A stretch of DNA of 64,000 nucleotides from Camelus ferus (lineage: Eukaryota): positions 89,282,001-89,346,000 of the forward strand of contig NC_045696.1 of the NCBI RefSeq assembly GCF_009834535.1, read 5' to 3'. The notes below the pieces were generated by a model. The model saw nothing but the letters and a program-made list of their open reading frames with translations, did not search any database and had not been told where the DNA came from. Shown one piece after another: positions 23,301-63,121 of the stretch. Position numbers and translations under genes: made by a program. Position 1 is the stretch's first letter. Each line of letters starts with the position of its first letter.

Positions 23301-26300
23301 TAAAGGTTTTCCATGAAGGTTTTCTGGGCTTTAGCAGTTCTGCTATCTAGGCAGATGTACACACATCTGGAAATAAAGATAAGCAGCTGTAGAGAGGGGA
23401 ATACGAAAGGGCCAGTTAAGAGAAAAATGCATTTTTGTCTCAACACAGAAGTGGATTTTTGGCAGACATGTTTTGTATAATAAGAATGGCTAACTCTGAA
23501 TACGTGTTCTCATAATTATTTTAAAATTGAAAGGTGGGACTGCCTTTTAATTTTAAAGAGGTACAAGTCTGGAGAAAAAAGATGCAGTGGTTGGCCAGTT
23601 CTTTTATGCATTTCATTGGGAACCATATTTTAGCCTTTCTTAGTGTCTTGAAACATTTCCTGATTTGGGGTTCACTACCACTCTCTGACCTCTTGAACTG
23701 AAGTTTAGGATTATGAAACAAGAGGATTCAGGTCTGAAAATGAGAATATATGTTTTTTCCTAGAATCATGGAGCTTGGGAAATACCAAATACTTGGGAAT
23801 GGTTTACCAGAAAAAATCTTCAGTCAAGAAGGTCTTCAAAATCTGGAGGCTCTGGACTTACTTGGGTGAAGAAGAGAAAGGAAAGAGCAAGCAGTTGGTC
23901 TCCTGCTTTTGTGCTCTTCTTCCTCAGTTTGCTTTCACTACCAGGTTTGGGATTTGGGGGTGAAGTGATGGAGAGTGAAGGGAGACACAGTACCAGGCAG
24001 CTATGGGGCTTTGAAGTCATAATGGCCTAGAGTCAAGTGTTCCTCTTCTGTTTGTTAGCTGTGTGATCTTGAGGAAGTTAATGAACCTCTCTGAGCCTCA
24101 GTTTGCATTTGTAAAATGGCCTTCATAGGCTTATTGGGTTGATTCAGTGAGAAGATACAGAAAGGTTTTAAATATCCGTAAGTGCAAATAACACCATTGT
24201 TGTTTTCTTCCCGCCTTTTCATTTATTCATCAAAGATTCTGATTCAGAGGGCCCAGAAAAACAGTTTTCAGAAGGCATCCTATGGAATTCTAATGTCCTC
24301 AGTCCATGCCTTGAGAAATGCTGTTCATAAAGGATGACTAGTGGTTTGGGCATCAAGGGAGAGGGCAGGGCTGTCACTTACATGCACACACAACACCAGG
24401 GGGTACCCCAACATCACAGTACATGTGCATGGAGTGCACATGGTTGGAATGCGTGACCTGCAAGTCCACAGGCAGTGACCCTTTTCGGGGGAGGGTTCAG
24501 AGAATAGTGTGTGTGTATGTGTCTATGTGTGTGTGTGATGCAGGGTGTCCTTGGGACACTGAAGAGCTTTCACTCTGGGGAAGCACACAGAGTGGGAAAC
24601 AAGGGAGCCAGGTGGAGGTCGTTGGGTGCCAAGCCAGGGAATTTAGGCTTCAGCCAGGAAGTGGTGAGAAGCCACAAAGGGGTCTCTGCAAAGACATGAC
24701 CAGCTCATGCAAATCAAGGTCACATGAGGGATGAACCGATAAACCAAGAGTAAGATGGTGATTAGGAGAATATAATCAGCCAGCCAGATGAGAGGCAGAG
24801 AGAGCTTGAACTGAAGCAGAAATAGTGGACTTGGAGGAGGGGACAGGTTTGAGAAATGTGTAGGAGAAGGCTTAGGAGGACACGATTGCTGGCTGGGAAA
24901 GAGGAAGCAGGACCTAGTGATGACTTGGAGGTTCTAGTCTGGTGACCTGGTGTTGTGATTCTCTGCAAAGGCAGGTCAGGAGGAGCAGGTTTGCATGGAA
25001 AGGGAGGGCAGTGATTAGTTAAGTGCTGATAGTATTTCATTTAAAGTGTTGACATGACCCCCTCTCCCCACCGTGCCCCCAGGCCTTGGGCACCTGGGAC
25101 TCAGGGAAGAGGCCTGGGAAGGGGGTAAAGATTTAGGACTTGAAGCCTTGACATGAAAAGCAAGCACTGGGGCATCCTGAGGAGGGTGCAGTGAAGTGGT
25201 TCTGGGACACATCCATTGCTGGGAGGCTGAGGCCAATGGGGCACGTGGAGAGGGGAGAGGCTATGGAGACAGGGGAGGGGGTGAGGGGGGAGCAGACCAG
25301 GTGAGAGGGACTGGAAGCCATGGGGGAGCCTGTCACCTGCTTCATCTAAAGAGATAGCGGCCACTAAGGACGGAGAGGGCCCGATGGGTCTGTCGGGCAG
25401 CAGTCCTGGATGGCTCTCGCTCAGTGGTTTTGGTAACGTGAGAGAGCAGAAGCCAGGTGGCTTAGGGTCTGGGAGAGGCTGGGGAGTGGGAAGCCGCGAC
25501 TGTAGGCCCTCCTGTGAGACCAGCATGAGGAGGGCGAAAGGAGGCTAGGTGGTCGGTCGTGAGGATGGAACGTTCCGTAGGCGAGGGGAGGACCGCCCAT
25601 TGAATTGAACGGGAGCTGTGGGAGCCCTTCCTTTCTCAGGCGCGCTGGATCTGGGGGAGGGGCCGCAGGGGCCGGAGGGGCCGGGTGAGAAGACCTGGGA
25701 GCCGGAGGAGGATGCACAGAGGGAGCCGGCTGGAGGGAGGGGCTGGAGGCCCGCGCCGAGTGGGCGACGACGATGGATTGCAGAAGGCGCGGCAGAGCCA
25801 GGCCGCGTGGCGGGGCACGGAGGTGCCACATCGTGAAACTGTGAAAGTGTGTGCTGGCGTTTCCGGGGGTGTGACGGGACAAGAAGGGGTTCAAGTGCAC
25901 GCTTGGTAAGTTCCATCTATCCGGGTGGTTTGGAATCAGGCGGCAGGTGGAGATGAGGGGCAGGCGGAGGATTGAGGAGGGAGAGCGTTGTTTAACGGGT
26001 AACATTTCTGGAGAAACATAGTATGATCATTTTGAAGACTTTCATAATTATTTTGTATAAAATTAGTATCCATTTATAAAACTGTTTTTCTGTTCTTGTT
26101 CTAGTGATGATCACAGTGCCTCTTCAGAAGAAAAAGGTATGGTACTCCAAGTCAGTGCTGAGTCATCCAAAACCTTAACCTGTACTGCGAGAAACATTTG
26201 TGTCTTTAGAAAATGATTTCTTTATTCATTTTATATGTTGGCTGCAATTGCTTTATTGCATTCAGGCATTCACCGACTTATAGAAATGAGTTGAAATAAT

Positions 26301-29300
26301 CAATAGGCTAGGATGATGGAATAATGGCAACTTTTCAGAATTTTCTCTAAGATTATCTTTTCAAGAGGTATTCAAAGTGAAATGTAAAGAATTGGGTGGG
26401 GCCTTTGTAGTTTTTTACAACTTAAGAATAGAAAATAAATGCTCTTACATCTCTCTCCTTTTAAACTCTAGTTCTAATGTTCTTTTTAACTTTATTTTAA
26501 ATTCAGTAAAGTAAGATTAGAGAAGCATTGTCACCTGAATTCAATCAACGTTCCATGCACAGTGACTAGGTCTTTTCTTTAATGCTTGAGTGTGGTAAGT
26601 CTGTAACCGTGTGTAGAGATGGATTTCTTGCTCTGGCTTGTTCTCTTTATCCTGCACTGCATGCACAGCTAGCCCAGTGTCTTACTGGGGGGTGGTTCTG
26701 AGGTCACTTTGGGCATTGACCTGTGTCACTTGGCTGCAGAGTGGCTTAGAAACTCCTCAGCTCGTCTCTGGGCCACTGTCTTACTTTTGCAAGTTTCATA
26801 TCCCTCCTGTGGTTCATTTTTCCAGAGCAGAATAATGACAACCTGCCTAAGAAAAGTATTATGATGAAAATTTAAAAGTTTTTGTAAAGTGTGTCTGGAA
26901 CGTGTGGTGTAAGGGGATGACGTGAATCTGTCACGAATGGGGTTGGATCTGGCGGGCTTTCTGCTTCACGATGCTGACCTAAACCTCCCCCATCCCTCTC
27001 TTTGCTTTTGCCTGTTTCTGTCTGGCTGAGATGCCTCTCCCTTCCCAACATTTAACTTCCAAGTGTGTTTCAGATCAACCAGATTCAAAGACTAGTGCTG
27101 AATCCCTCACATTCAGTGAGTGGTCTCAGCTTCTCTCTTGGACCAGCAAAATATCAGCCTCACTTCATTTTGTATTGTCTTGATTTCTTTCTCTATCTAA
27201 TGCATGGCTACTCCTTGTCCTCACAATCTCATTAACCCATAGACTCTTTGCTGGGGTGTGGATTTTCTCCGAATTTCTACAGAATGCCCACCACACAGTG
27301 GACACTAAGTCAATGTTCATTAAATTGAAGGGACAGTAGTCTCTGACTGTGCCCTGGGGGAATCAGTCAACCAGTAACTAAGCCTCTGTTGTTCACCAGC
27401 CCAGTGGGGGTTGATGGATATTCCAAACAAACAAGTGGAAGAGTGCTAGGTCCAGGTCTAGAGCAGTCTACTTGAGCAGAACATAAATAACAGACAAGGG
27501 GTATGGTAACTGAGGAGCAGTCCATCCCTGCACAGGAATGCCCTTGCTCTATTTAACACTGTTGGTAACCTCTGCGAGTTACCCCTTCTTCTCCTTTATC
27601 TCTAATGTCTCCATTTCCCCGGCACCCACACTGGCCTGGACTCTCACCACTTCATACCTGGATCTCTGCAGTGGCCTCTTAATGCCAGGCTCCCTGAAGT
27701 CTTGTGCATCCTGATCATCAGTAACCCCCAGTGTCCACCAACATCTTGGGGAACACCAAGGCCCACTCCAGCTTGAAGCGCTCATGTAATTCTGTGTCTC
27801 CATGTCATTGCCTGTAGGAGAACCATCCCCCCAGTCCAGCTCTTCCTAATTGCATTCAAGGTCCTCCCTGGTCTGATCCCACCTTATCTGGCCAACTTCA
27901 TGTCCTTACTGTCAACTCATTTGGGTCATTTCACTAAATTGTTGACAGTTGTTTTCCTGAATTGACTGTTGATTGGGGAGGACATGGATTCTTTGGTGTA
28001 GTAATACCACTGTCTGCCTTTCAGTTACAAAATCTAAAACCAGGTTTGTTTTTGTTTTTTTTTTCCCCTTTCTGGTGTCAAGTTACTTAATTGCCAGGGA
28101 TGTTTTTAGGGAGCTGCTGAGTTGATCAAACAAAGAAACAATGCCACTCCTTTGGTACAAAATAGAGACTGCCAGGGACCCAACGAAATGTAATGAAAAG
28201 TTTGTTGGCTTTTCTGTTTGCCTTCTATTGGAAAAGGCTTAAGGTTTCTTTGTCTAAATCTTGTCTCCCCTGAGACTATGGCGTTGTTTCCCATTGCTCA
28301 CGGGGCGTCAGTTTGACATGCAAGACTGCTTTGGGTCTAACGTGGTCGTTGAATGGCACAAAGGGCTTCTGTTATTTGGGACTTAGCTTTTACAAAAATG
28401 AGCATAATCTTCTATTTTATCCTTGTGTTTATCCTATTAAACTTTATTTCTTTCTCAAAATTTAGATTGCCCTAGCCCCAACCTAGATACTTCAGAGGAC
28501 TCTAAATCAGGTAAGGGATATGATTAATATTGATAAATGCCCAAATGAAATTTTTACAAAATAACCAATTCATAGCAAGGTAAATTACAATTTATTTATT
28601 TATTTAGTACTGTTTTACTTCAAACAATCTGAGTGAAAGGTAGGGACTTTCATCTTTCTATTTGAAAGGGCTGAATAAATTTTAAGCTTTCATGATTACC
28701 TAGCTTAGTGAAATCAGTGACTTTAAAAAGTTTGATGATAAACGCGGTACTTAGTGAAACTGAGAATTTATCTTTGGCTGGGGTAGTCCCAGGAGGCTTC
28801 TCTGAGGAGATGATGGCTGGATTGAACTCTGAAAGATGAACTGGGGTCACAGGGCAAAGGCCAGGAGAAGAGTCGTCTCAGTTCAGAAGACTCACAGGTG
28901 TAAAGGGCTGAGTGAGGGAGAGTGTAAGTGCTTGTTCGCAGAGACTGAAGGGCAGATGGCTGGGGTGCGGGAGTGAGGGGAAGGGTGACGGGGCCAGAGT
29001 GCGTCTGCAGGGACAGGCGGGGGCTAGATGATATAGGGTTAAAAAACAGATTCTCCAGAGAAGATGTACAAATGGCCAAAAAACACATGAAAGATGCTCC
29101 GTATATTTCAAGGAAATGCAAACCAAAACCACAGCAAGTTACTACTTCACACCCTCTAGGATGGCTGTAATGAAAAAGGGAGGTGACAACAAGTGCTGAC
29201 AAGGATGTGGAGAAGTTAGAGCCCTCATTCACTGCTGATGAGAACGTAGAATGGCACAGCCCCCTGGCGACACAGTTTGCCAGTCCTCAAGTGGCTACAC

Positions 29301-32300
29301 ATAGTTACCATTTGACCCAGCATTTCCTCTCCTCTTATATACCTCAAAGAAGTGGAAACATATCTCCACACAACCAGAGGGAAGGTGACTTGAAGGGGTT
29401 GCCCCAGCCAGGCTCCATCTCCCAGGGACCTGAGGCAGAGGGTGGGCCTCACCTGGGGCTGGTCCAGGCAGAATTACAGCCCTGCAGAGGTCCCAGACTG
29501 CCAGAGGGAACCGACAGGATAAAGAGGGGCCTTGGTAGGGGCTGCATGGTTCTTTAAAGCTGGGCAAAGCATTCATTCATTCACACTTTCATTCATTCAT
29601 TGAGCATCTGTGTTGGGACGGGTGGCGGAGGGTCAGGTGATGAGACAGTCCTCCCGGGCTCACAGACCAGCAGCTAAAAAAGCTGTTTGGCGGAGGGGTG
29701 AATGGGGCAGGATGGAACACAAAGGAGGCACAGCTAGCCTGACTCGGTGGGGCGGAGGGAGATTGTCAACAGGAGTGACTTTTGGGCTGGCTCTTACTGG
29801 ATACCTAGGAGCTCTGGAGGTGGAGTCTGGGGGAAGGATTTCCAGGCAATGGGATGGCATCTGTAAAGGCATGGAGGAAGGAGTGGGATGATTCTAGTCC
29901 AGGGGTTCTCAACCCTGGCTGTGCTTTTCCGTCATCTGGGGACCTTTAAGAATATACTGCTGTTCAGGTCCCACCCGAGATCAGTTAAATCAAAACTTCC
30001 AAGGAAGGGCCGAGTCCCAGGCAGGGGTGTGTTTAGGAAGCTCCCTAGGTGATATTGGTGTGCAGCCAAGGTTGAGAACACTGCTCTCTGCTTCCAGCCC
30101 TGCAGGACCAAGTCCATGTCTTATTGCCTTTATTTCCCAGCACCTGTTCCTACAGAAGCATGGCCTCGCCCTCCACCCAGGCACTTCTCATGCAGGAACC
30201 TGCCTCCTGCTCCCCCTCTCCCTCCACATCCAGACAGTCACCAGCTCCTGGGCCTGGAATTGCTGAAGTCACAAGAAGCATGTTTGCAAATGTAACAACA
30301 CGGTTAAGCGTGCAAATTCGGGCCAGCCTGCCCAAGTGGAAATCTTAGCCCCAGACTTCCTGGGCAGCGGGTAGTAGGGTGCTGGTGGTCTTGCGTAAGT
30401 AAATTCACTGACCTCAGCTTACCTCACTGGGAAGTCATGAGGGCTAGTGTGTAAATGTATGTAAAGCTCTTACATAAATATATGTGAAGTGTGTATATAT
30501 ATATGTAAAATGAGTAAATAAATGTAAATGAGTGAATACGTGTAAATGAGTAAGTATGTGTACAGCGCCTGGCACAGTGAACACTCAGAGAAAACTGCTA
30601 TTAGCTGCTATATTACTGTTCTCATTTTTATTCTCAAATCCTTTCATTCCTCCATGGAAGTATTGCACGTCCTTGGTTTTGGTCGTCAGCAGTTGTGTGT
30701 AGGGAGGGATGCTGTTAGGATAATACCAATAGCTTTCTGTGTGTTTACTCAGGGAACCCCGGGCCTGGGTGTGGTGAAGCTGGGGGAGCAGTGGCGGCGC
30801 GGGGTGGAGGGTGAACTTGGCCGGGTGGACTACCTGGGCGCGTCTCTGGTCGGCCAGGGCAGGTCCAGGGCGGCCCTGGAGGTGGAAGTCGACGTGCCCC
30901 CCCAGGGCTCTCAAGGTGTTCGTAGTTGGGGGTGCGGGGATGGAGAGGAGCGGAAGGCCCGTGGAGGGCACTTGGAGAGGCAGGAGGAGAACCAGGACAG
31001 ACACCAGGGGAGGGCACCGGCAGGAGGGGATGGTCCGTGTCTTTCCCTGGGGGAGTCATGGGACTCGGGGTTAGCGGGTCTTTGGGGCCATGAAAGAAAG
31101 GATTCCAAATTCTGTGGGAACAGAAGCCTGATTGCAGTGGGTGAAGGTGCTGATGTCGGGGTGTGGGAGGGCAGGGAGCATTCCTGGGGACCACTCTTTC
31201 CAGAAGCAGTTGAACAATATAGACTGTCCTCTGCTTTGGGAAATGGCAGTTACACTGCAGAATTCTGCCCTGTTGTATGATTGAATTTGTGCATGGAATC
31301 TCCTAGATGCACAAGTGCAGGGCAAGATGGGAGCAGCAGGGGGCAGGTCAGGCCTGGTGGGACTTGGGTGACACCCAAATAAAATGATTATTGCAGCCAG
31401 AGTGTGATTTGAGCTCTTATTTAAACAATTAAATTATGTTTTGTTCAGTTCCAAAGAAGGATAAGCCCTCTATGTAAACCAGACTAGATTTGGACTCAGT
31501 GAGAACGGATTATAAGAAGAAGTTAGTTGAGTTTGGATCTGTTTTATTATGTGTATAATTTAAGAAAATAGTTCCCACTTCCTTTTCATTGTGTGCTTCT
31601 CCCGGCATATGCTCTTTTTTAGGCGAGGACAGCTGTTCTGAGAGCAGCTCTGAAAGCGAATCAGGTGAGTTATCTATGTGTGTGTTTCTTTAATTACAGA
31701 ATCCTAGGTAAACATAGAAACCTTTATTTTTATTTTAAAGTAATGGCCACATCGGTTATATTGCTTGAGGACACGTTAATTGCCAGAGTCTTTTGTGTGG
31801 AATACTGAAAAAGTACGTACATGGTAAATAATTTCTGGTTGGCAAGCAAAGTGGCAAAACAGGATGAGCTGAAGAAGAAAGACAGGAAATGGTTGCTATT
31901 GGTGAGGAACAAACATTTTACCTGCTCTCCCATTAGCCTGTGTTTTCTCTTAGTTGTCACATGAATCTGATTTAGACCTTTTTTTTTTTTTTGTAGATAA
32001 TGAGGAGCCAAAACCAAAACAAACAAGTGAGTGTATCCTTCCTTCCTCTGTCATCTTTTGTGTTGTTGAAAGGAAGAAAAAAGGGTAGGCTTTGAGATTT
32101 TTAAGTTGCAAGTTGCTTGTTTCATGATCTTTTTTTTCATGGAAAATTGAGTTAAGCTTTAGGAAACAAATAAGCATTTTGAAAATTTGAGTTCAGTACA
32201 CTCGGGATAAAAGGGGCGTGTTCTTGATCTGCACTGATGCCAAGGTTCTGCATGAGCTGTTCTGCTCTGAGGATTCCCAGAGGAGAAGAGATTGAGAGAT

Positions 32301-35300
32301 GGCCGAAATCTGCAATGTCGCCACGGCCACAGCCTCGGCTTCCTTCCGTAGTGGTCGCCGCTCACAGTTCATCACAGGGTGAACAGTTTGCTGCTGAAAG
32401 TGTTTTACCATTTGTGGTTTAAAGTTTCTGCCTTGCTGTCCTGGCTGTTTGTGAACCACTTGAGTATGAAGCCACCACAGAGACATGGATCCTAAATATA
32501 AATTTGATTCGGGTCTAAAGTTTTGTGAAAAACTTAAAAAAAAGTGAGTGACTAAGCTTATATTTTAACTGAGTTTATTTTACTGTAGGATTCCACCCCT
32601 GCCCCCCACCCAGTTCTTAGAATATGATCTGCCCACGAACACAAATACTATAGCAAGGCAGTCAGAGGGTGCCTTTGTAATATTTTAAAATAAATGAAGT
32701 CTCTTCACTGAGAAGTCTTGTATTTAATTTAATTCTCTGCAGTTTCCCAGTGGGGAACCCGGGAAGGTAATTGTAAGCTCCTTGCAATCATGTTATGTAT
32801 TGATAAGAACCTATAATTATTTCTGTATCACACTCGTGGAGTAGATGTCACATTCTGATAGCCATAAGGGAAAAATGTACACCAGCCCTCCTCCCAGTCC
32901 ACTTTGTACATTAAGGATTAGTTCATCTTGCAAAATGTGATCAGGAGTCCAGCCTCTGTGGATTAGATTGGGATAGAAATTAAATCAGAAAGCTGTGTAT
33001 TGGGATCCAGTCTTTGCTGTTCCTGGTTAACAACTGAGTAAATGGCCATAGGGACACAGAGTCCAGAGGCAGGGCCCTCAGGGTCCTGGAAGCCAGGCCT
33101 GGGCTTCCAGGTCCTCGCCAGGGTAGCACCCAGGTGGAAGGCATTCTGAGTCAGTGAGGCTCAGGACAGGCTCAGCATTGGTGGGAGGCTGGGGTCAGTG
33201 TGGTGAGACAGGGCATGTGCAGGGCAGGGACTTGCTGGGCCTGGCCCTCAGCCGAATTAGGCACCTGGATGTTCTCTGGCAGCGACAGTGAGTAGGCTGA
33301 GCATGCTTGTCCTTGGAGCCCAGGGCATCCAAGGGGCCCTGCCTTCCCCCAGGTTTATTCTCTTTGTTAAAAGACATTTTACCCTCTGTGTTGTGGGTGA
33401 GATCAAAGAGGCACTCCCCATTCACTTCCATCCGCAGGTCTGATAGAAGGACCAGGCAGACCACCCTGGCTCGCTTGCTTCTCTGGGCTGGCTGGTGATG
33501 CAGGCCCACCCGTTGTGCTCATGATTGGATATGCCTTCTACTCATAGGCATGGGCTTGGGGTCACCTCTCTTGTATGGACTAAAGAGAAGCTGTGGTTTA
33601 TGTGTTGGAGAGAACTGTATCGGTCCTTCTGCTGGGAAGACCCGTAGACTCTATCTGCTGGGCGGTTAGGATTCTCTAACCTCTTTCCCTTTCTCTGTTC
33701 CCAAGGCAAAGGGCAAGACATAGAAACATGGGATGTGGATGCAGTGCAATGTGGATGACAGCCATTAAATAATCTAGAATTTTACAGTGCTTTTTAGGAC
33801 AGCGGCTGAGGAAATATGATTGAAGGATTTTGTGGTGTAGGACTTGGGTCAGTATTTCAGAACCTTCGGCTTTATAGTATTCTGAGTCCAGAATTCTGAA
33901 TACTTTTAGTCTCTACTTGCCATTTCATCTTAATGCTGTTTTTTTAAAAGCTGGTTCTCTCTTGCAACCCCTGGTCCCTGTATAATGCCCTAACAGCAGG
34001 CAGCTTGTGTAGCCGGGGCTGGAGCACCATCCTGGGGGAGAGCCTGCACCTTCTGGGTGGTATTGGTGGCCTAGGACCTTCTACATGTGTTGAAGATGCC
34101 TGTCTCAACAACAGGCTGACCCTCCCAAAGGCTGTTCAGATCTTTAACATATAAAACCAAACACTTAACACATTAGGTTTTACCCCATGTGAAGGGTTAT
34201 TGTTTACTTTAGAATTCCTGAATTTTTTAATGAGTCCCACCATCGCCCTAGCAAAATAATATTTCATAACAGTTCGCTAGTACTCACTGAGTGCTTGCTG
34301 AGTGCCAGGCACAATCCTTGCCTGTAATTTAATTTTCTATCTTTCTAGGGGTGGTATTATGCTAATCTCCATTTAATAGATGAGGAAAGTAATGGACAGA
34401 GAGATTTAGTACATAACTAGAGAGCCCAAGCTCATGAGCTAGTGGCCAAGGCAGGTAATAGGAAAATTCATTGCTGTTCTCGTTCATAATTCATTTTGTA
34501 GAATTCTAGTCATTCAGAAAATGAACACTGACTAGGCCCTGGGGTTATAGTCCTCATGAAGCTTACATTCTAATGGGGAGAGAAACAGGAATCAGAAAGA
34601 CTCAGCCAAATAGTGTGTGAGGTTGTGGGGAGTGCCCTGAAGGAAATGAAAGGGGAAGAGAATGTGTCAGGCAGGCCCTGCTGTCAGGAAATCCTCTCTG
34701 ATAAGGTGATCTTTGAGCAGAGACTGCAAGGATGTGAGGGAGTGAGCAACGTGAATATTTGTTGTGAGTATTTGTTTGAGGAGACAGTGCAAAGGCCCTG
34801 AGGCAGGAGCATGTGGAGAATGGCTCAGAGTGACTGGAGGGTTGTAAGTGCAGGGAGATGCAGTAATGAGGAGCCAGCGGAAGGAGTCTACATGTTAAGT
34901 CAGAGATAGTTCTGGTTTAAATGTGCCCAAAACCAGATGTTAATTACTCTCTTAAGTCCAAGCTAATCTCTAACTTGAAAGTCACCTGGGGGGCTGATGC
35001 TGATCAATCACTGTCTTGGGGATAATGACTCCAGCTTAGGTGTCCCAACTCCGGGCCGCCACGAAGGGCTCCTCCTTGGGGGCTGCAGCTGTCCAGATGG
35101 AACGCTGGCCTAGGTGGGGAGTAACCAGTGAAGAGGTTGTTTATGACCACCTGAGCCCTTCTTGTCTTCATAGATGGGGAGCTAGGAGAGTCTTCCACCG
35201 AGGAGGCGTCCACTCAGGGTAAGAGCGAGGCAGTGCCCTTGCCATCTTGTTTTCTCGGATCCATCCTGTTCTCCCTGTGCCTGTGGTGTGGGAGGAGGAT

Positions 35301-38300
35301 GTGAGGATCAGGCTGAAGGATGGTGAGACAGCAGTTGCTTCTACATAAAAAGATCAGCTAAAGACCTATGTGCCAAAATGAGCTGCGTGGAAACTTAAGC
35401 TTGTTTTCATGCCCCACCCAGCCCTACAACAGGACTCACAAATGTGATAACGGGTCATGTGTCTCTAAGTCCAGTGATGGAGATGTTTAAATAAAGTTCC
35501 TGTTGGCTGTGAAGCTGGAGGTGGGGGCTTAGGTGATTTACCCTGTGATTAACTTATGCCAATTCACGAATGATTGTATCTTTCACAGTTGAAGAATGGG
35601 AGGATAAAGGATTGCCCACAAATCATTTTAATTCAGGTATGAACTTAATATATTCCTTTAAATATTGTTGCTAAGGGGCTTGTACCTTTGAATTTTGTAA
35701 TCTGGTCATATCATATATATTTATTAAACATTTTTTGTCTGAAAATGCCAATCACATTCCTATAAGTAAAACTTTTTCTCTGTCATTTAGAATTTAATAA
35801 AATCCAATCTCACTGTGAACACTGTAAAGCTGAAAATGTAAGTCTCTTTTAATTATAAAGTATGATTCTTTAATTTGCTTGATTTAAGGAAACAACATTT
35901 ACTTATATATCATATATGTGCTTTTTCTCCAGAAACACAATGAACCAGTGACCCCCAGGCTCCTTTCCCGGGGACAGTTTTTGTAAGTCATTGTGGATAC
36001 AGAAGACGACATATTGTTCATCCTTTTAATTTTCTATATAAAAATAACCCTGAGTAGGGGAAGCACAAAACAGCATAACTTAACTTCACACATTTTATGT
36101 AATTCCTTGGATTGTTTTCTTTGATACTGATGTTGCTTCAAAATGTTACTGAGTTCTCTTTGTGCTTTTGAATGAAATTAAAAACAAATAATTGCAAGAA
36201 GTCCTCTCCTACCCAAGCAGCAGGACTGAACAGGTGCTCTTATCTGTCCAATGCAGACTGAAGGTGGACACGGAGGGCATTTACCAGTGCACGGAAACTG
36301 GTCTGATATTTGAAGTTAACAGAAAAGTTGACATCAAGTATTGTGTCTTGTCCTGGAGCAAATATGCGGACCTGGTTGTTAAGCCCTGGGTTGTCGGTGG
36401 ACCCTTGTTTGATGTTAAATGTGACCCTACCTGTCTTACCTCCATTCAGTTTCCACATTCCCTCTGCTTGGGTCGTAAGTACTAATTTGCTAACAGTTTA
36501 ATCTGTGCGTGTGTGTGAGAGAGAGAGAGAGAGAATGTGTGCAACCCATACAATGCCTGGAACACTGACGCACCTTCATGTCTTCACAGACTGCGACACC
36601 AACATGATGTTCAAAGTCTTGCATGTTAAAAGTACTGGGGCCTCGTTAGAATACACCGTGGACCACTCTGCAACCCATGTCAAATGGCGCGTGAGCTCTC
36701 TTTCTCCTGTGGGACCTGTTATTCAAAGCGAAGAAACGGTGTTCCACCACGGGGCCGTGATTCTGTACAAAGCCATTGACCATAATCCATCCTTGTCTTT
36801 TCGAGTGTACATAGCAACCAATAATGAGTCCTTCATCAAGGTAAAGCCAATGAAATGAATACTAAATGTTGAATACTTTGTTTTCAGACATGACACGACA
36901 TCTGGGTGGGTCCTGTCCCTGTTGCTTTGTGTCCCCCCTCAGCGGCGGGTCTGATTTGGTGCTCCCACAGAGGTCGTAAAGTCCGTGGCTGGTGTGTGTG
37001 TGCTGAGTCCTCAGATCCAGGGAGTATGATTGTTTGTACATGTAAACAGTGTTGTGAAGATAACAAATGGGGAAAGAGCTCTTCAGAGCTGGGGCTGGCC
37101 CAGGCAAGCAGGCCTGGCCTTGGAGGAGATTGCCTGGTGGACAGCCTAGGCCATCTGTTTTCTACAGCCTTTTTGCTGGGGACCAGGGACCAGGGGCCAG
37201 AGTGGTGACATCAGCAGGGAGCTCGTTACAGTGCCAAGTCTCAGCCCCACCCAGCCCTGCAGACTCAGAGGTGACTGGTGTGCACGTGGAGCTGGAGAAG
37301 CACCGGCCCTGGGATGCACTGGGCATCGAGGGTAGGGTGACCGAAGGTTTCTTCTGGGCCTAAAGCTCCACCAGTAAGATGGGCCTCTCAGGGTAACTCA
37401 CTGCAGAACAATTTTTTGGATAAAAAATTGACCCATTGTTCATGGGTTCAACATTCTGGTTTTTGAAGCAACAAATATTCATGAAGCACCTCATGTGTTT
37501 AAGGCAGCCTGGCCTGAGGGAAAGGGTTTAGATATTCACCATGGAACCAGTTTTCCAGAACACCGAATAAGGCTGTGACGTTCAGCCCATTTTCCAAACA
37601 GTATTGTTTAGAACAAAGGGAACCGAATCTCCTTTCATAGCCCGACTTAGAGGTCGGCTGAAATATAGCAGATAAAGCAGTGACACAAGATTATACTTTC
37701 AGATTCGAAATCAGGGTTTGACAGAAGTTAAATGAGCATTAGAGCTGTAATAAAGTGTGCTAATTTAAGAGTTGTAATTTGAGCTACAGAATCTCTATCA
37801 AACGATCTACTCCCAGTGGTCTTTGGTTGTAGTATTTTCACACTTTAAAAATGTTATACTGATTATAATTAGCCATATGTATTAAAGTATAAAAACTTTA
37901 TTAAGTAATGGGTTTTTAGTTTCTTCCTAAGAAGGTAAAACATGCTTCCTGTAATCTCATTAAGGTAATACTTTCAGTTGGGAAAGTAATCTTCAAAATG
38001 GTATGAGAATAATTTAAAGTATAATTAGCATAGATTTGGAATAAGTACTGTTGTTTAATGAACTTTATATTTTTTTAAGTAAATTCAGTTATTAAAAGGG
38101 GATTACCCCTCTTCCTAGGAAGCTGGGGTGGGGGCTGATTACATCAGCACATGTAGAGACGTTTGCCGCCAGAACAATGGGGAGCGTGGCACTGGTAAGG
38201 CAGGATGTCCTTCCTGGCTGATGTTTTATTTTTACACTTTTCTTCATGGGTTGATTTTTTTTCCCCCTAAGTAGAGAAAGATTTCCTTGAATTCTGCCTC

Positions 38301-41300
38301 AGGAAACCTAAATTTCATGTTCAGCTGTGACAGCTGCTTTACCAAGGGAGCCTGGGCCAACGCTTACTTTAACCTCTTGGGGGCATTTGAACAATACATG
38401 TAAAGTCAGCGCCCCCCGTAGGCCCACGTCAAAGGGGTAGTTGTGAAAATAAGGATGGAAACATATAAAGTGTGGGACAGAGACACACTGAGTAAGCTGG
38501 AACCCTGTAGAGTAAAGTAGCTGCCTTCTGTCCACAGGTGCACTGCTAGTGCTAACTGAACTCACATCCTTCAGGAGCAAATGGTCGGTGCCACACAGGG
38601 TAGAAGGGTTGCTTTTGGCCGTAGTGCTTTTGCAGAAAGATGTTTGGCGATCTGGGAGCCTGAAGTACAGATCAAAGGCGCCTCAAGCCTCTGTGGCCTT
38701 TTTTCCCCCTTGTGAGCACTGTGAAAGCTACTTCAGGGCTGTCACTTTGTAGTCAGAAGTGAAGATAATGCAGGCTGGCACGTGCCCTGCCTATAATCTG
38801 ACATTTCTTACTGTTGTTGCTGATGGATTTCAAAACCAAAACCTGTTTCCACCTTTAGGATATTTCCAAGTCTATAAAGCACTCCTCTAAGAAATTCATG
38901 AAAGTCGACAAGCCTCCTGTTTGCCTGAAGTTGTTGCAGAATGGGAAGAAGTACAGACTGATTAGTGAGCCGGAAGCCGAAATCACCCCAGAGGTAGAGC
39001 TCTTAAAACCACCTCAGAGGGGCAGCGGGGATGTGGATCTCTTAGCTGTGGTGTTTTGCAGATACTACAAATAATGTATTTTGTTCTCATTTTTTTATTT
39101 CCCACCTTCTAAGAAAGCAATTGTGTTTTTCTCATCTTGTAGCTTATTTCAAAGATCCTGTTGAATTTTAGGATGCTGCAGTCATTGGGAAAATAGACTC
39201 CCCAGTCTCTTTCCCTTTCAAAAGGTTTTCCATTTTCTTGAATTTTTAATTAAACTCTTCAAACAGTGTTAGCTTCAAAGGAATACAAACCTTAAGTTTA
39301 ATTTGAAGTCACACAGAGCATTAAAGGTTAATGGAAGGGAGTTGCTAACAAGGGATATTGGGCTTTTCTTACTGGAAGGCATTTGAAAAATAGAGGACAG
39401 ATTGTCATCAAATTTGTCTGTAAACACCATGACATTTGTAAAGTGACTTTGATTTCTCAGAAATGACTTGGTTATTTTGAAAACTTATTTTCACAGTGTG
39501 CTCTGAGCATATATGCCACAGCTTGTCGAGCCTGGACCTCTGTGTGCAAATTCCTTTGTATGCCTCCTTTTGTTTGTCTGTTTATTTTATAGTTTATGAA
39601 AAGCTGAAAACATGTTTTGATTCCATTAAGTTAAGATGGGAGGCAAGAGAGCTAATTGCAGTGGGGTCCATGTTGCATCATTTTATTGTATCATCAAGGC
39701 ACCCAGTGCCCTGTAGAAGCAATCACAAACCCTGATCAAGCTGTCGAGTTGATCAGACAGTCTTCTATTACCTTCCTTTCTGGTTTTAAAGGGTCTCTTC
39801 GCACCCTTTGAATTATTTAAGCCTTACAGCTACATGGCTGAGGAAACTGATGCAGGCGGGCAGTCTGCCCAGGCCACATACCCGGGCAGCGGCAAGTTCG
39901 GCCCAGAGCCCCAGCTGCCTTTGGCTTCTAAAGCCGCCGTCTTCCCACTGGGATCTGAGAGGTTAATTCTTGGCCCTCCCAAGCTGATCAAGCCCTGGCC
40001 GATGGTACAGCAAGACAATCACAAGAAGCAAACTGCAGCCTTGTCTGGGAAGTGGAATTAAATTAGAAGAGTTTGCTTAGAGCAGTGATTCTTGGCCTTT
40101 GCTGCAATGGAATCCCCTGGGGAGCTTTAAAAAAAAATTCTGTGGCCTGGGTCCCACCTCCAGGGACGCTGACTTAATTGGTCTGGGAAAGGCCTGGGCA
40201 TTGGGTTTGTTAAAGCTCCCAGGTGCCTGTAATGTGTTGCCAAGTTAAAGAACCACTAGGAGAGGGAATAATACCTATTGAATAGGTGAATCTGTCCAGG
40301 AAGAGACCAAGGTGGTCCCAGGAGTTCTTTTTCACAAAAGATGTTGATAGCTGGGGGACTTTAAATAATCTGTGTTTTACGACTCACTGTGTGCTCTCTC
40401 TCTCAACCAAATCTCTGGCCTATAAGATGGGAATAATCTCCCAGGTTTTCTGTAAAGATCATACAAAGTGATGGTTTGTGGGTACTCTGAAAATTTTTAA
40501 CACTCTGTGTAACTATAAGGTGTTCTTTTCAGTTTTATACCATTAATGATTTGTTTAACTGACATTGATCAGGAGTGCCTATTACAAGTCAGCCTGGGAT
40601 GAGAGCTAAGAGTTAAAAAAGAAGTAAGTCACAGGCTTTTTTTTTTCCCCGTGGGGGTACTGGGGATTAAACCCAGGACCTGGTGCGTGCTAAGCATATG
40701 CTCTACCACTGAGCTATCCCGCCGCCCCTAGTAAGTCACAGTCTTTTCCCTCAAAGATGCCAGTGTAGTGAGGGAAGTACTCCATTCATGCAAAGAAATA
40801 ATTTTAACGTAATGTGGTATTACTATAGAGATGGGCAGGAGGTACAGTGGGCTTTTCCAGGGAGGCTTTTCACATGGGGGAAGTTTGCCTGGGTTTGCAG
40901 ATGCCTGAGAGGTGACAGGAATGTGCGGCTGGGCTGGAGGCCCCCGGGAGGCTTTGGGGAATGGGAACGTGGAGGACTTTGGGAGGACTGGGGCCAGGGG
41001 AAGGAGTTGTCTCAGCATTATGGACCCTAGTGTGTGACCCCTGGAAGGTTGTGAGGATAATGCTAGTGACTTGGAGCAGAAAGAGAGGGGGGCAGGTTAA
41101 GACCACCGGTTTGGGGGGTGATGCCCAGTGCAGTTCAGTGTTATTTATTAAGAATGTACTTCTCAGCCAGGCTTGCTAGCCAGTCTGGAGAGGAGCAGAG
41201 GAGGTGGGAGGAGGAGGCAGTCCATGTAGAGGTTAAGAGCTCACACTCTGGAGTCAAAAGATGTGGATTCAAATTCTGGTTTCATCACTTCCTGCATGTG

Positions 41301-44300
41301 GACTTGGGCAAGTTCATTTGCTTCTCTGGGATTCTTTATCCATGAAATAGTCATAAAAGGATTTGTCCAATGAGGAACTATGGGTAAAACCCTCCACATA
41401 GTTCTGTGAATGTTGAGTCAGTCGCAGATTGGAGCATGCTCCAAGGAGAGGATGGTGAGGAGTTTAAAAGCACCTGGGAAAGGGTGGCTGATGGGTGAGC
41501 CCACGTTCCATCTGAAGAATCAGGAAAGGGCTGACAGATGGGGCCAAGGGACTAGAAAGGAAGCTTCAGTAAGGTAGAAATGCAGTTTGGAGTAAGAGTG
41601 GGAAGGTCTAGAAGGAAGAGAGTAAGAGGACAAGTGATTGAGTGGTGGGATTTCCAAGGTCACGATTTCAGTGGGGTGGTCCAGCAAGCACTAACCCTTT
41701 TAATGGTCATTATTCTTTATCTGACATTTTATGTTGTTCATTAGTGCAACTTTTAAATGTAAGAATGTCACTTTTTTTTTTTTAAAGGAAATTGAATTTG
41801 TGGATGGTTCACTTTTAAAATTGAAAAGTTATATTGAAGTGTATTTGGAGCAACCGGTGGAGTTTAAGTTACTTTTGGTGGAGATGGATTCCGAGGAAAT
41901 TGTATGGAAAGCAAAACTGAGAGAGTGTGAGTGTTTCATGTTTTGCATCTTGAGTTAAAACTCTGGTTTGGTGGGGTTGGGGCGGGGCGGGGCGGGGCGG
42001 GGTGGGGAGGTGGGCAGGCAGACGGGGCAGTCGTCCATCCCATCACTGGGACGTGACAAACTTCGATTAAAAGAAACGAAGGCCCCAGCCACTGGGACAA
42101 AAGTGCCGGCTCGGGTTCTCAGGCCCTCACCGTCCAAGTCCCCAGAGAGCGGGTGCCTAGAGCCCATATTTGCTCTCACGTCTTTCTCCTCCAGATGCGA
42201 CACCCAGTCAGATCGGTTTGGATTTCTGTCCTAGTCCAAGAAGGAAGCTTTTCTATGGGTGTGATTCTTATTGTCAGTATTAGACCCTTAAATTAGCCTT
42301 TCATCCAAACTACAGTTACTTAGCCGGGAAGAGTCCTAGGCGGGACTCTGCATTGGGGGTTGTATTATTTTTCTCTTGGTATTCATTAATTTGTCAAACA
42401 AGTGAACCTGAAAGATGTTACTTTTTAATCACAGCAAATGCCACAGTAATGAAGGTATTTAACATGTCGCCACCCGAACAACTGATGTTCTTCTAGACTG
42501 AGTCTCTCTCGGGGTAGTTTTAGAGACCACTTTATAAGGCCTCTTTGTAACCTTGTGTAATCACAGTCTGCATGCTAAGGTGGCCCTGGTCTGCATTATC
42601 TGGGGGCTCTATCCTACTGGTTAGCAGCACCTGCTCATCACTTTTCAGGCGCCTTCACTCCAGAGACCTATCAAAGGCCTCCTGAGACGTCGGCACGTCA
42701 GAACGGGGGCTGAATTTCACACACGGCAGGTGCTGTCCAGTCAGAATGAAGTATCCAGAAAGAATTCCCAAAGTACAGGGTTTTCCAAACTACAGAAGGC
42801 TAATATATATGTATGAGATTCTTTTACGTGGAGAAAAATAAACTTAAAATGTTTATTTTTACGGCTTCCTTGTCCACCTGGCACACAATGCCAGTGTTCT
42901 GATCGCAGTAGTTCTAGATTTGAAGAAATGCAGAAGAAATGACATTTCACCTGGCATGTGGGTAGGGCACGTATCATGACGGTGGTTTGCAGATGACTGA
43001 GGTTTGGGAAACACTTGTCTCACAAGACATGTTGGAAGGAGTCCTTGTGATTTATCTCAAGAGTCCAAGCCCAGTGCATTTGCGTACGTACCAAGTTAAA
43101 ACTCCACACTCATATTTGAACTTTAGGGAGATTGCCAAGACCCTAGGGCTTCCGTGTTTTCACAAATCGATTGCTTTAATTCAAATTTCATACCACTTTT
43201 TCCAGTTGATGCTTATGGTACTTTCACAGGTGACTGGATTCAGCAAGATCGGAATCGGAACATTTCGAAAAGCAGCACAAGTGGTGAGTGCTCATAACTG
43301 GACATTAAACTTCTGTTCTTTCCATCCACTAGAATTTTAATTTTGCTGTGCAAATACGGTAACATCAAGGATCTGTTAAGTGTTCCATAACTCTTAAATA
43401 GTCTAAACACCTCTGAATCCATTTTCAATTGGTTTCTATTTGTATGATGATTTTTTTAAATCCATTTTGAAGATGGGTGGATACTAACAACCATAAGGGA
43501 AAGCCAATTTGTTGCTGTTGTTTTTTAAAGGTAACAGGCGTCGAAAAATGAGTAGCAGCTTACCTGATGAAGTGGTCTATGATAAAAGAATGAAGCAGAT
43601 TGACACTTCAGGTTTGTAAAAATGTCATCAGTGGCTCTAAATCATTTTCCCTGGTCTCCCGCCTTGACATTCATCCAGCACATGTGCTTCTCGGGTCAGT
43701 CTTCCTGGAACACATCCCAGATGTGCCTCCCAGATACCTTCTCCCTGTGTCCCAGCTTCTCAGGCCTGGGTAAGGGTCCCCTTTGGTCTGCCCCAGCCTA
43801 CTTTTCCAGCTTGACTGCCCGCTCCTCCCCTTCACTCAGTGGGATGAGAACGGGAGGAGGGGAAGCTCCTGCAGCCCCTAGGGGCAGGACCACGGCCTGG
43901 CCATCTGTGCATTTCCCATAGCACTGAGCGTGCAGCCTTTTATGCAGAAGATAATGAATGTGCATGTGTGCAGTCACCGGTTTCACAGTTATTAGCTACA
44001 TTTAGGGGAGGGAGCCGCCAGCTCAATTATTGGAGACTAGAGTCAACCTAATTTTTTCCAATTAAATGGCAGAGACCAAAGCTCGATAGTTGTGAAAATA
44101 CAATAGAGATTTAGACACGTAACAATGGTGCTCTGAGGAGCCAGAAGATGGAGTATGTGCCTCAGAATTCAAGTCCAGAACTCACAAATTTGAGTTTTAA
44201 AAACCCAAACTCAAATTATATGAGACAAGGTCTCAAGGCTTTGGGAGCCTCATGTAACTCCCCAGATTAAATCTTTTCAACAAAATACCCTTTATTTTAC

Positions 44301-47300
44301 TATTGTAAGAAAGTGTGAATCTCTAAAAGCAGATAAACTCTCTCTATAGACTGAAATAAGATCTTTCACTTCCTAGAGCAGGCGGTGGTGAGGATGACAC
44401 GTGTCTGATTTTACTGCGTGTCACTAGAGACTTTTTTTTTAATTTTTATTAAGTGAACATCAGAATAAGTGAGGCTCTGGAATTATTTTGCCTTAACTTA
44501 ACTTACTTAACAGTTATTTTAACTTAACCAATTTACTTAACCAAATTGGGATATAATATTTTTCCAGTTTTATTGAGATATAATTGACAAATAAAATTGT
44601 ATAGATTTAAAGTATAAAGGTGATGTTTTGATGTATGTATACATCGTGAAATATTTACCAATCAAGTTAATTAGCACATCTACCACCTCACATAGTCACC
44701 TTTTTTTTTTGGTGGTAGTGAGAATGCATAAAACCTACTCTCTGAGCAAGTTTCAAGTATGCAATACAGTATTATTAACTAGAGTCACTGTGCTATAGAT
44801 TAGATCTTCAGGACTTACTCATTTATAACTGAATGGGACACAATTTTGTATTAAATTGATACATAGGAAAAGTTTTCTTTTCTTGAAATTATTTGGCTGT
44901 TTTGAAATTAGCTCCAATAACAAGTAGCTAGAAATAGAATTCAAATGATCAGATGCTACCTAGAAAGATTAAGGATTTCTAACCACTTTAGAGTTGACAA
45001 TATGATGTCAAATAAATTAATAAAGATTTACTTTTGTTTAGGCATTTCTGCAACATGTTTTGAGCTGTTGAGTCTCTATCTTGGTGTATCAGGCTCAGCA
45101 TATCACCATGTTGCTTTTTAAAATATGGTCAGCTCTCTTGGGAAGGGTGTAGCTCAGTGGTGGGGAGGGTGTAGCTCAATGGTAGAGTGCGTGCCTAGCA
45201 TACACAAGGTCCTGGGTTCAATCCTCAGTACGTCTATTAAAATAAATAAATAAATAGTAAAATAAAAACCTAATTACCTCCCCCTTACAAAAAAAAATTT
45301 CCCCTCAAAAAAATAAAATAATATTCAATATCTTGTAATAATCTTTAATGAAAAAGAATATGCAGATGAATATATGTATGTATATGCATGACTGGGACAT
45401 TATGCTGTACACCAGAAGTCAACACATTGTAACTGACCATACTTCAATTAAAAATATTAAAAAGTAAAAAATTTGAAAAATATGGTCAACTCTCAACCTT
45501 AACAGAATCACTTTGAGATCTTGTTAAGTTTAGGTTAAGAGTCTGATGTGGTAGTTTCGGGGACAGCCCAAGGACTGGCCTTGTTAATAGACTCCCTGGG
45601 GAGTTTTCCTGGCAGCAGGCCGAGAGGTGCACTCGTCTAGGCACCGGGAAACCTCTAGAGGGCAGGGGCACCCCTTTAGAACCCATCCTCCAGTCTAGAA
45701 GGCTGGAGAGGAAACTGTGAAGTGGGTTAGGGTCTAATATGTATGTTTGGTTTACATGAATAGACTGTTGGCTGTAGATGAGCGAAAGTGTTGTGGTCAT
45801 GGGAGAGGGGCAGAAGGGACTCTTCCCTCTCTCTGCCTTCCACTGTCACCTCCAAGTGTTTGTAAGACCTTGAGGATCCTTAAAGGAGACTCAGCAGCCA
45901 GTGAGCTTTGCTTCACCATAGCACAAACCAGCTAAAACACGTGAACGTAGAAAATCTGTCTTACCGACAGGGCTAATATTTTTATGGAGCCAATAGTTTG
46001 CACTGGCAAACGTATATCCTTCCAAGATTATGACCCTGTTTCTTAGCAACAGATAGTACAGATACCCTCCTGTGACTTTTCTGTGGATTGTGCTTTTCCC
46101 CCCAATGCCAGGAGATGGCAGAACGGAGACTACAGGTCATCTCCCTTCCTGCCTCTTTAGTGACCACTTAAAGGTAGCATTTTGTATGTGGCTTTAACAC
46201 TTAAAGACACAGAGGTGGGCAAGGGTAACAGCTGTATATTTTTCTTTTTGAGCCACATAAATTATTTTCGGTGTCTTGATTTTTTTTTTTAACTCCAACC
46301 TAATCTGTGCTGCTTTGTAAAACAATTTCATTCCCTGAATTATTGAATTATCATTGTGAGCAAGCACTGTGCCCCAGTTTCATGTTATAGGAAATTGTTC
46401 CCTTCTGTCTTTAAAAATAGTTTGGAAAGCAAGAATTTTTTTGTCACTTAAATATATCTTAAAAGCAGTTATTAAATTTTCAAATTGTGGTTTCTTTTTT
46501 TATATAAAGAGAATGTATTTTCATTGTGAATTCTTCATCTGCTTTTAGATGGGGCAAAGACTAAAGCCTTGTTAACAGACACTCAGCTGATAAGCCTTGC
46601 TGAGAAGCTGGGGCAGGAGTGGGTAAAAATCGCCATTGCCAACCTGAAGTTGAAAATTAGCGATATTGATGCTATCATGGAGAAGAAAGAAGACGTTACA
46701 ATGAATAAGTTTCGGATGCTGAAGAAGTGGCAAGAAAAGGAGCAGAGTAACGCCACAGCTCAGAATTTATGTAACTGCTTGAAAAATGTCGATTCGGTTG
46801 AGGTCCAAGATGTGCTGAGAGGTAAGCAGGAAATTATCTTTAATTAGCCACTTTCTTGGAATCTAGCTATGTCTTTGCAAATAGCATATTTCTACCATAG
46901 AATGTGTTGCTTGCTTATTTATAAGCTTGGGTCCACATAATTCTGCAAATGCAGCAGTAAGCACGTGGGTGACCATAATCTTACTAAAGGTGGTTTGTGC
47001 ATGGAGTCAGGGAGCGTTTAAATCTCATCTCAAGTGCTGGCTAGGTTTGTGACTAAGCAAATTCTTTTTTTTTAATTGAAGAGAAGTTAATGTACAAAAT
47101 TATATAAGTTACAGGTGCACAATATAGTGATTCACAATTTTTACAGGCTATGCTCCATTTATAGTTATAAAGTCTTGGCTATTTTCCCTGTGTTGTACAA
47201 TATATCCATGACTAAGCAAATTCTTTACCTAACTTTAAGCCTCTATGTGCCTATCTGTGAAATGGATGTAAAACCCTCACTGCCCTGTTGTGAGACTGAA

Positions 47301-55856: not shown

Positions 55857-56012
55857 AAGGAACTAGGAAACGGGTATGGATATTGCTGCATTCTTTCCAA
55901 GGTGATTCTGTTCAAATTTTATCACTTTTCAGTTTTCCCACAACGTGTATTTTAACACTCAAAGTATTCCAATCACATTAGAAAAATACGAGAATTACTT
56001 TAATTCAGTCGT

Positions 56013-56018
56013 TTTATT
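56013..56018 (-). terminator. IL12A: IL12A polyA signal
   Basis: AATAAA on the minus strand about 510 nt after the stop; ATTAAA follows at ~55999-56004. Confidence 0.75.
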
Positions 56019-56054
56019 TTGAGAACAACATAAGGTATATCTCAAATCCACTTG

Positions 56055-56155
56055 ACAATAAATATTTTAATAAATATGACATAAATAAATATAAGTTAGT
56101 TCACATGCTTTTATGAACACAAAATTATATAAATAAATATTTTAAAATAAATTAT
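56055..56155 (-). promoter_or_regulatory. IL12A: AU-rich element cluster in IL12A 3' UTR
   Basis: Several ATTTA/TTATTTATT motifs on the minus strand (plus strand taaataaat). Confidence 0.7.
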
Positions 56156-59668: not shown

Positions 59669-59724
<56 letters not shown>

Positions 59725-62812: not shown

Positions 62813-62912
62813 GCTGAGCGGCGCTGCGGGGACACCGAGCTGGCAGTTGGACGAAGACGGATGGACGCCGCAGGTGAGGGCTGTGGTTGGGAGGCTGACC
62901 CAGAGGGTCACA

Positions 62913-63105: not shown

Positions 63106-63121
63106 AAAACGAAAGTAAAAT
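63106..63121 (+). promoter_or_regulatory. IL12A: IRF/ISRE-like element upstream of IL12A
   Basis: AAAACGAAAGTAAAA, next to a GC-rich Sp1-like segment; same position as the ISRE I recall in the human p35 promoter. Confidence 0.6.

Follow-up and report, generated by a model that had tools for sequence, protein, structure and literature searches.

Self-cleavage of the FIIND, which consists of a ZU5 and a UPA part, and subsequent 'functional degradation' is how NLRP1 and CARD8 sense pathogen proteases. In NLRP1B and CARD8, degradation of the N-terminal piece leads to release of the C-terminal piece (bioRxiv 10.1101/317834; PMC9700037). E1195, H1186 and S1213 are named as the catalytic triad of NLRP1, with cleavage taking place at F1212|S1213 (PMC9700037), and mutagenesis of CARD8 shows that H252, H270, E279, S295 (marginally), F296 and S297 matter (PMC3210808). 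PIDD1, composed of leucine-rich repeats (LRR), two ZU5 domains, UPA and a death domain (LRR-ZU5-ZU5-UPA-DD), self-cleaves at HF|S (PMC3210808), and its UPA-DD fragment acts together with RAIDD, with which it builds the PIDDosome (PMC3210808, PMC9162469). Among FIIND proteins, study has been confined to NLRP1 and CARD8, since human and mouse contain no others. Here we describe another FIIND gene, located on the plus strand of a 64,000-nucleotide stretch of the Camelus ferus genome (assembly GCF_009834535.1, contig NC_045696.1, positions 89,282,001 to 89,346,000 of the forward strand; hereafter the window, in which positions are counted from its first nucleotide). Its product ends in a Death domain and carries leucine instead of phenylalanine at P1, the residue preceding the putative scissile bond. 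The FIIND-Death family represented by this gene is old, strongly conserved and unstudied; it occurs widely among vertebrates but is apparently missing from the common model organisms.

The putative cleavage site lies within positions 36622-36714 (+), the translation of which is HVKSTGASLEYTVDHSATHVKWRVSSLSPVG. The His, Glu and Ser codons are placed as in the original prediction, which had been made from the nucleotide sequence, and they fall inside a genuine exon (exon 11, see below): His262 is encoded at 36622..36624, Glu271 nine residues further at 36649..36651, Leu288 (P1) at 36700-36702, Ser289 (P1', the putative nucleophile, 18 residues after Glu271, codon TCT) at 36703-36705 and Pro290 at 36706-36708. 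The NLRP1 spacing given in that prediction proved correct as well. In phmmer alignments of the full camel protein with PDB chains, H262/E271/L288/S289/P290 align to H1186/E1195/F1212/S1213/P1214 of human NLRP1 (6x6c_E). The FIINDs of rat NLRP1 (7crw_A, where His262 corresponds to H942) and CARD8 (H270/E279/F296/S297, 7jkq_B) align likewise, and the alignment from His to Ser is free of gaps in all three solved FIINDs. A bare H-x8-E-x17-S pattern would often arise by chance; here, however, it occupies homologous columns of a significant domain match, so that chance is not the explanation.

The camel counterparts of the six CARD8 residues listed above are H245 (codon at 36456-36458 in exon 10), H262, E271, S287, L288 and S289. 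Five of the six are identical to CARD8 and invariant in 26 amniote orthologues, the exception being L288 (F296 in CARD8); the camel protein thus has Leu288 where the Phe-Ser motif has its P1 Phe. Leu for Phe had been put forward as the only change at the site. The P1 replacement is real, but it is not the sole difference, as P3' differs too (P2-P4' are S-L|S-P-V-G in camel vs S-F|S-P-L-G in NLRP1). The strand ahead of the site reads HVKWRVS in camel vs HIVLENP in NLRP1. Camel Val260 occupies the position of the human NLRP1 change M1184V, which raises autoproteolysis (PMC9700037).

We then looked at how well the site is conserved. When homologues were sought with the ZU5 exon, 139 of 149 candidate proteins reached E <= 0.001, and 120 of these were listed; 118 of the listed homologues align to exon 11 and 115 cover the site. 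Invariance across orthologues had been proposed as a check, and it was borne out: all 116 listed homologues that cover H and E retain both, and the complete pattern of H, E, S (P2), L (P1), S (P1') and P (P2') occurs in 112 of 115. Single records depart from this pattern, namely that of the turtle Dermochelys (P0118), which has Phe at P1 and is otherwise identical, a partial bird record with Ala at P2, and an aberrant Columba model (P0104) with Glu at P1' after a gap of six residues. Leu occupies P1 in 113 of the 115. Column conservation in the 26 amniotes averages 0.36 for residues 1-150, 0.78 for residues 151-178, 0.83 for ZU5 and 0.90 for UPA. The UPA, which would begin with SPVGP as a new N-terminus, is the most conserved part of the protein (76% identity in camel vs chicken), and the best conserved stretch of the whole protein is FVDGSLLKLKSYIEV in exon 13, with conservation of 0.99 over residues 383-397.

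The site had been called a variant one. Leu at P1 is indeed present, but it is not a local variant; it represents the fixed state of a separate and ancient FIIND lineage. When a profile of the 26 orthologues was compared with 1.84 billion cluster representatives, 919 matches were obtained at E <= 0.001 (422 of them at E <= 1e-10), and the best 150 of the 919 were analysed, 107 of which cover the site. A group sharing the motif W-x-V-x-S-L (n=54) has Leu at P1 in 54/54 and the full His/Glu/Ser set in 47/54. All other representatives (n=53), which we call the Phe lineage, the lineage of the known self-cleavers human and rat NLRP1 and CARD8, have Phe at P1 in 48 cases and the full set in 42/53. 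Among the 78 representatives of at least 300 residues, Pfam detected a Death domain in 14, all of which belong to the Leu group; none of 46 from the Phe group has it, CARD or PYD being present instead, and a few fish paralogues of the Leu group terminate in CARD. In a FastTree phylogeny of the FIIND columns (72 sequences, unrooted, 78 of the 150 representatives being omitted for less than 80% coverage of these columns), 20 core tips of the Leu lineage were split from the 52 others with a support of 1.0. Judged by these groupings, Leu at P1 marks a separate FIIND lineage, not a camel variant. Named members of the lineage come from two sharks, a sturgeon, a perch, a caecilian and the Komodo dragon; caecilian, lizard, shark, sturgeon and teleost representatives all share the H..E..S-L|S-P pattern. 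The records from sharks and perch take their name from the zebrafish locus si:dkeyp-97b10.3. The presence of members in sharks, sturgeon and teleosts indicates that the Leu lineage is as old as jawed vertebrates. Trp283 was also considered as a compensating partner of Leu288; this idea was dropped, since some representatives of the Phe lineage carry Trp at this position too.

The Leu lineage has diversified in teleosts. Among its fish members, P0177 possesses two FIINDs and a CARD, and P0178 four Death domains, a FIIND and a CARD; P0190 has Cys as the nucleophile and a CARD. Loss of His or Glu was seen in the paralogues P0178 (both residues) and P0183, and Cys at the Ser position in P0182 and P0190. 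Cys can serve as an alternative nucleophile.

As for the domain composition, the original prediction of a FIIND with homologues of the catalytic residues, followed by a UPA-Death part, agrees with both Pfam and the alignments. The annotated camel protein (P0008) matches FIIND at residues 176-298 (PF13553, E 1.1e-36; 125.8 bits, cut-off 25.8), UPA-FIIND at 303-422 (PF23679, E 3.7e-23; 82.7 bits, cut-off 27) and Death at 483-561 (PF00531, E 9.3e-10), with no Pfam match to CARD at E <= 0.001. PYD, NACHT and LRR are absent from the full resolved coding sequence, and no Pfam match to them was found elsewhere in the window, where 82 long open frames were scanned of the 199 that reach at least 75 residues. 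The parts follow one another in this order: an acidic and probably disordered N-terminus, which comes from micro-exons, then a brief conserved motif, FIIND (ZU5 and UPA), a basic linker and Death. The N-terminus (residues 1-153) is acidic (isoelectric point (pI) 4.5), rich in Ser and predicted to be disordered, with a predicted local distance difference test (pLDDT) value below 50. The motif preceding ZU5, C-x-H-C...E-x-V-T-P-R (residues 146-178, positions 35791-35982), is specific to the family; its C154, H156, E165, V167, P169 and R170 are invariant in the 26 orthologues, and it does not occur in NLRP1 or CARD8 within the aligned region. The linker between UPA and Death (basic over residues 428-476) contains an NRRRK and a KR.MK cluster, both basic and separated by about 14 residues, with pLDDT below 50 at residues 430-475. 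Together the clusters resemble a bipartite nuclear-localisation signal.

The structure was predicted using AlphaFold2 with the 26-sequence alignment, and similar folds were searched for with Foldseek. The mean pLDDT was 59, with ZU5 at about 80, UPA at about 60, Death at about 85 and values below 40 in the N-terminus and the linker. In this moderate-confidence model, the ZU5-UPA fold is nearest to the solved FIINDs: rat NLRP1 (7crw_A, E 9.3e-18) ranked first and CARD8 (7jn7_B, E 1.3e-11) second, followed by the ZU5-ZU5-UPA-DD part of ankyrin-B (4d8o, E 6e-11) and the cytoplasmic part of UNC5b (3g5b, E 1.3e-8). The Death domain matched the folds of RAIDD (2o71, the best match), ankyrin-G and FADD, and its best sequence match among solved structures was the nuclear protein THOC1, with ankyrins matched as well. 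A search of solved structures with the exon only found no FIIND, the full protein being required. Complex prediction for two copies of UPA (residues 289-427) returned a score of 0.00, which is evidence neither for nor against their association.

The best reading of these data, to which we assign a probability of roughly 0.6, is that the FIIND-Death protein self-cleaves at L288|S289 and that its UPA-Death part signals once the N-terminal part has been lost. In this process, His262 and Glu271 would activate Ser289, and the bond L288|S289 would be cut by acyl-shift chemistry as in NLRP1 and CARD8, with the side chain of Leu288 filling the hydrophobic pocket that holds Phe in those two proteins. 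The products would be an N-terminal/ZU5 piece of 31.6 kDa and a UPA-linker-Death piece of 32.0 kDa, which would stay associated non-covalently. If CARD8, NLRP1 and PIDD1 are taken as a guide, the UPA-Death piece would then be freed once the N-terminal piece is lost or degraded, and it might assemble and signal via a death-domain partner rather than via CARD and caspase-1.

Cleavage itself, which appears probable from comparison with the known FIINDs, is favoured by several observations. All residues needed in CARD8 other than the P1 Phe are fixed, and in two representatives Cys stands in for the nucleophile Ser. The His/Glu/Ser triad is retained in the Leu lineage (47/54) at least as well as in the Phe lineage (42/53), and Phe and Leu interchange at P1 in sea turtles. 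The fold appears to tolerate the loss of His or Glu in P0178 and P0183, and the invariance of these residues among the orthologues thus looks like functional constraint. Furthermore, adhesion receptors have a GAIN domain that self-cleaves at His-Leu|Thr/Ser, which shows that such chemistry can proceed elsewhere with Leu at P1.

Several points weigh against this reading, and they concern i) the P1 residue and ii) the evidence for cleavage and signalling as such. As for i), the Phe-Ser motif, whose Phe lies buried in a pocket, has been described as essential for catalysis (PMC8081665), and the sole P1 change tested, F296H in CARD8, abolishes cleavage (PMC3210808); no test of F-to-L at P1 was found in the literature searched. 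Moreover, Leu occupies the position equivalent to P1 in the ZU5 of UNC5b (PMC3210808), a protein not known to cleave; the pocket may therefore accommodate Leu while the strain required for cleavage is lacking. As for ii), cleavage has not been reported for any member of the family, and neither published nor proteomic evidence of it was found. H, E and S could be conserved for structural reasons, the downstream Death-domain partner is only a putative component, and the predicted structure is of moderate confidence only, in UPA as well.

Alternatively, the protein might be an uncleaved ZU5-UPA-Death scaffold or adaptor, similar to the cytoplasmic part of UNC5B or to ankyrins. H, E and S would then serve only to stabilise the contact between ZU5 and UPA, and the FIIND lineage with Leu at P1 would be one that does not cleave. 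UNC5b does have Leu where CARD8 has the essential Phe-296 (PMC3210808), both ankyrin-B (4d8o) and UNC5b (3g5b) are among the fold matches, and the top sequence matches of the Death domain include ankyrins next to THOC1. The FIIND also evolves slowly for a sensor engaged in an arms race, as seen from the ZU5 and UPA conservation across the 26 amniotes. However, the FIINDs of NLRP1 and CARD8 match better than UNC5b and ankyrin both in sequence and in fold, and five of the six residues needed for cleavage of CARD8 are invariant. In addition, the triad is no less well retained than in the Phe lineage, and replacements at the nucleophile position change Ser to Cys. We regard a scaffold as less likely than self-cleavage, though as its most serious competitor.

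The gene encoding the camel protein is intact. A splice-aware chain guided by tblastn resolved 17 coding exons at 25712..48551 (+), 1704 nt including the stop codon, which encode 567 residues; exons 2-17 are preceded by an AG acceptor and exons 1-16 followed by a GT donor. The joined translation equals P0008 letter for letter. This protein is recorded as 'uncharacterized protein LOC106730349 isoform X1 [Camelus ferus]' (LOC105066647 in C. bactrianus; accessions XP_010950347.2 and XP_032341266.1). Exons 1-9 (25712-25905, 26105-26136, 28466-28510, 31623-31664, 31997-32026, 35174-35218, 35589-35636, 35791-35837 and 35933-35982, all +) encode residues 1-178. Exon 10 (36257..36474, +; residues 178-251) contains the first part of ZU5 (Pfam FIIND E 2.2e-24), and exon 11 (36590..36840, +; residues 251-334), delimited by AG and GT, covers the remainder of ZU5, the putative scissile bond and the first part of UPA, with a FIIND match at E 2.6e-9, a weak UPA-FIIND match and 100% identity to P0008 in tblastn. 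UPA continues in exon 12 (38859..38993, +; residues 335-379; PF23679 E 9.8e-7) and exon 13 (41788..41926, +; residues 380-426; PF23679 E 7.6e-4). The basic linker (residues 426-471, pI 10.4) is encoded by exons 14 and 15 (43230-43283 and 43531-43611, +), the Death domain by exon 16 (46549..46821, +; residues 471-562; PF00531 E 6.4e-11), and the final six codons and the stop codon by exon 17 (48532..48551, +). The intron between the two ZU5 exons includes a short (GT)n/(GA)n microsatellite at 36506-36534. Two older camel models (P0013 and P0018) have an extra exon of 72 residues inside UPA at 39789-40004 (+), which occurs neither in P0008 nor in the proteins of other species in the 26-sequence alignment; this is probably a prediction artefact or a piece of retained intron.

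The FIIND-Death gene sits between IFT80 and IL12A. Exons of IL12A were detected near 58036-58479 and 61833-62279 (Pfam IL12, E 7.8e-25 and 2.2e-13), within 56000-63500 of the window; IL12A is encoded on the minus strand, so that it and the FIIND-Death gene are arranged tail-to-tail. On the other side, a TPR domain of the IFT80 type is located on the same contig and strand, at a distance of about 120 kb upstream of the window. A sturgeon gene model in which a TPR piece of IFT80 is fused to a FIIND-Death protein fits the same neighbourhood in a fish. Within the window, the region 16000-17400 is rich in CpG, has a GC content of 0.62 and contains long open frames on both strands, with no Pfam match found in it. 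The N-terminus of the badger model P0017 (residues 44-180) matches this region (+) in three shifting frames, and a homology search with a minus-strand frame of 356 residues gave one weak match. The region could represent a promoter of the FIIND-Death gene, an alternative first exon lying upstream of it, or a different gene.

The same locus bears on whether we are dealing simply with the camel orthologue of CARD8 or NLRP1, altered by a point change at P1. Names in the databases would suggest as much: among the 120 listed homologues, 35 bear the name CARD8 or CARD8-like and 23 the name NLRP1-like, and shorter isoforms of the camel gene itself carry the names 'NLRP1a' and 'NLRP1b allele 5'. Yet CARD (PF00619) occurs in none of the 120, whereas Death (PF00531) was found in 94, and the camel coding sequence ends in Death, not CARD, with neither NACHT nor LRR. 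The second FIIND locus detected in the camel, which is of the NLRP1 type, lies on a separate contig (G000:C16:10862616-10868235); it reads ...HFKAEGMLLE...ENPSF|SPMG with equal spacing and provides an example of the classical SF|SP site in the same genome. A third FIIND, of the CARD8 type, was not detected in camel, in a search that yields lower bounds only. With the fully supported split of the Leu-lineage tips in the FIIND tree added to this, such orthology is contradicted by domain content, locus and tree, and we consider it very improbable.

Misnaming extends to the literature. Fish records are named after si:dkeyp-97b10.3, and those of mammals and birds are labelled 'uncharacterized', 'CARD8' or 'NLRP1'. 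In the supplement of PMC11258412, the site motif V-S-S-L-S-P-V-G-P occurs nine times, and eight of these occurrences are covered here. Filed there as CARD8 are the proteins of platypus (XP_028925829.1), dolphin (XP_019801795.1), opossum (XP_007502538.2), zebra finch (XP_041574069.1) and alligator (XP_059587071.1), and as NLRP1 those of flying fox (XP_023380256.1), chicken (XP_046754474.1) and tinamou (XP_025901006.1). About the flying fox, its authors remark 'only FIIND and DD, different locus than CARD8'; the chicken and eagle 'CARD8' of the same source is a different protein, with a ubiquitin-like-FIIND composition and an SF|S site. This indicates that the family has been seen before, but was not recognised as separate. 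Statements such as 'songbirds keep CARD8' may consequently rest on a protein without CARD, and some conclusions on the presence of CARD8 or NLRP1 in birds and other mammals may rest on the FIIND-Death family. 'FIIND-death fold' extensions in other proteins and organisms are mentioned in general terms (PMC8679799). No paper describing a Leu-P1 FIIND-Death family was found, though a mention in Mitchell et al. 2019 or in bioRxiv supplements is possible, and a literature search returned 'dkeyp-97b10.3' in 0 papers.

Laurasiatheria, Xenarthra, marsupials, a monotreme, birds and turtles are represented among the listed homologues. Of the 120, 108 are named, and no primate, rodent, lagomorph or afrotherian is found among these 108. 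As an intact orthologue from any of the latter would rank near the top, the gene has probably been lost or has decayed in these four groups, to judge from the homologues recovered. Their absence would also explain why the gene is unstudied. Three mammal-like fragments (P0209, P0223 and P0266) have Phe in place of the nucleophile Ser (S-L-F-P) along with other changes and may be decaying copies in some species. That the camel gene itself is a pseudogene remnant or an artefact of gene prediction, as these fragments and the apparent absence from primates and rodents might suggest, is the least probable explanation of all and is contradicted by its open frame across 17 exons with standard splice sites and by strong conservation from shark to camel.

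If self-cleavage at L288|S289 is accepted, a broader but more doubtful scenario can be outlined, which we would still place slightly above the scaffold alternative. The family would constitute a third self-cleaving FIIND sensor of jawed vertebrates, with Leu at P1, whose UPA-Death part is released after the disordered N-terminus has been degraded or cut. It would signal through a PIDDosome-like, FADD-like or NF-kB-type death-domain pathway instead of caspase-1, would have been lost in the primate/rodent lineage, and would have been read as 'CARD8' in songbirds, which lack caspase-1. The third FIIND lineage is older and much more conserved, and differs in its output domain and P1 residue. Should the Leu site cleave, Phe at P1 would not be required by the FIIND mechanism, and the tripwire principle would extend to death-domain signalling.

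Compared with the known systems, the camel protein shares the ZU5-UPA-DD order and fold family with UNC5B and ankyrin, which are not known to self-cleave, but its similarity to them is much weaker than to NLRP1 and CARD8. With PIDD1 it has in common the order ZU5-UPA-Death, the expected release of a UPA-DD piece and a Death domain whose closest structural match is that of RAIDD. Unlike PIDD1, which was not among the phmmer matches of P0008 to PDB chains, it lacks LRR, has one ZU5 instead of two and reads S-L|S instead of H-F|S. NLRP1 provides the best match in both sequence (7crw_A, E 1.5e-18) and fold, and shares the H-x8-E-x17-S spacing as well as the Ser-Pro following the scissile bond (S1213-P1214 in human); unlike NLRP1, the camel protein has no PYD, NACHT or LRR, its P1 is Leu and not Phe, and it ends in Death and not in CARD. 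In CARD8, a disordered N-terminus is likewise followed by FIIND (ZU5-UPA) and one death-fold domain, H270, E279 and S297 are aligned without gaps, and H252 and S295 are matched too. The camel protein nevertheless departs from CARD8 in P1 (Leu vs Phe), P2' (Pro vs Leu) and the C-terminal domain (Death vs CARD), belongs to a separate branch of the FIIND tree, and is encoded beside IL12A and IFT80 rather than at the CARD8 locus, going by the human genome positions of CARD8, NLRP1 and IL12A.

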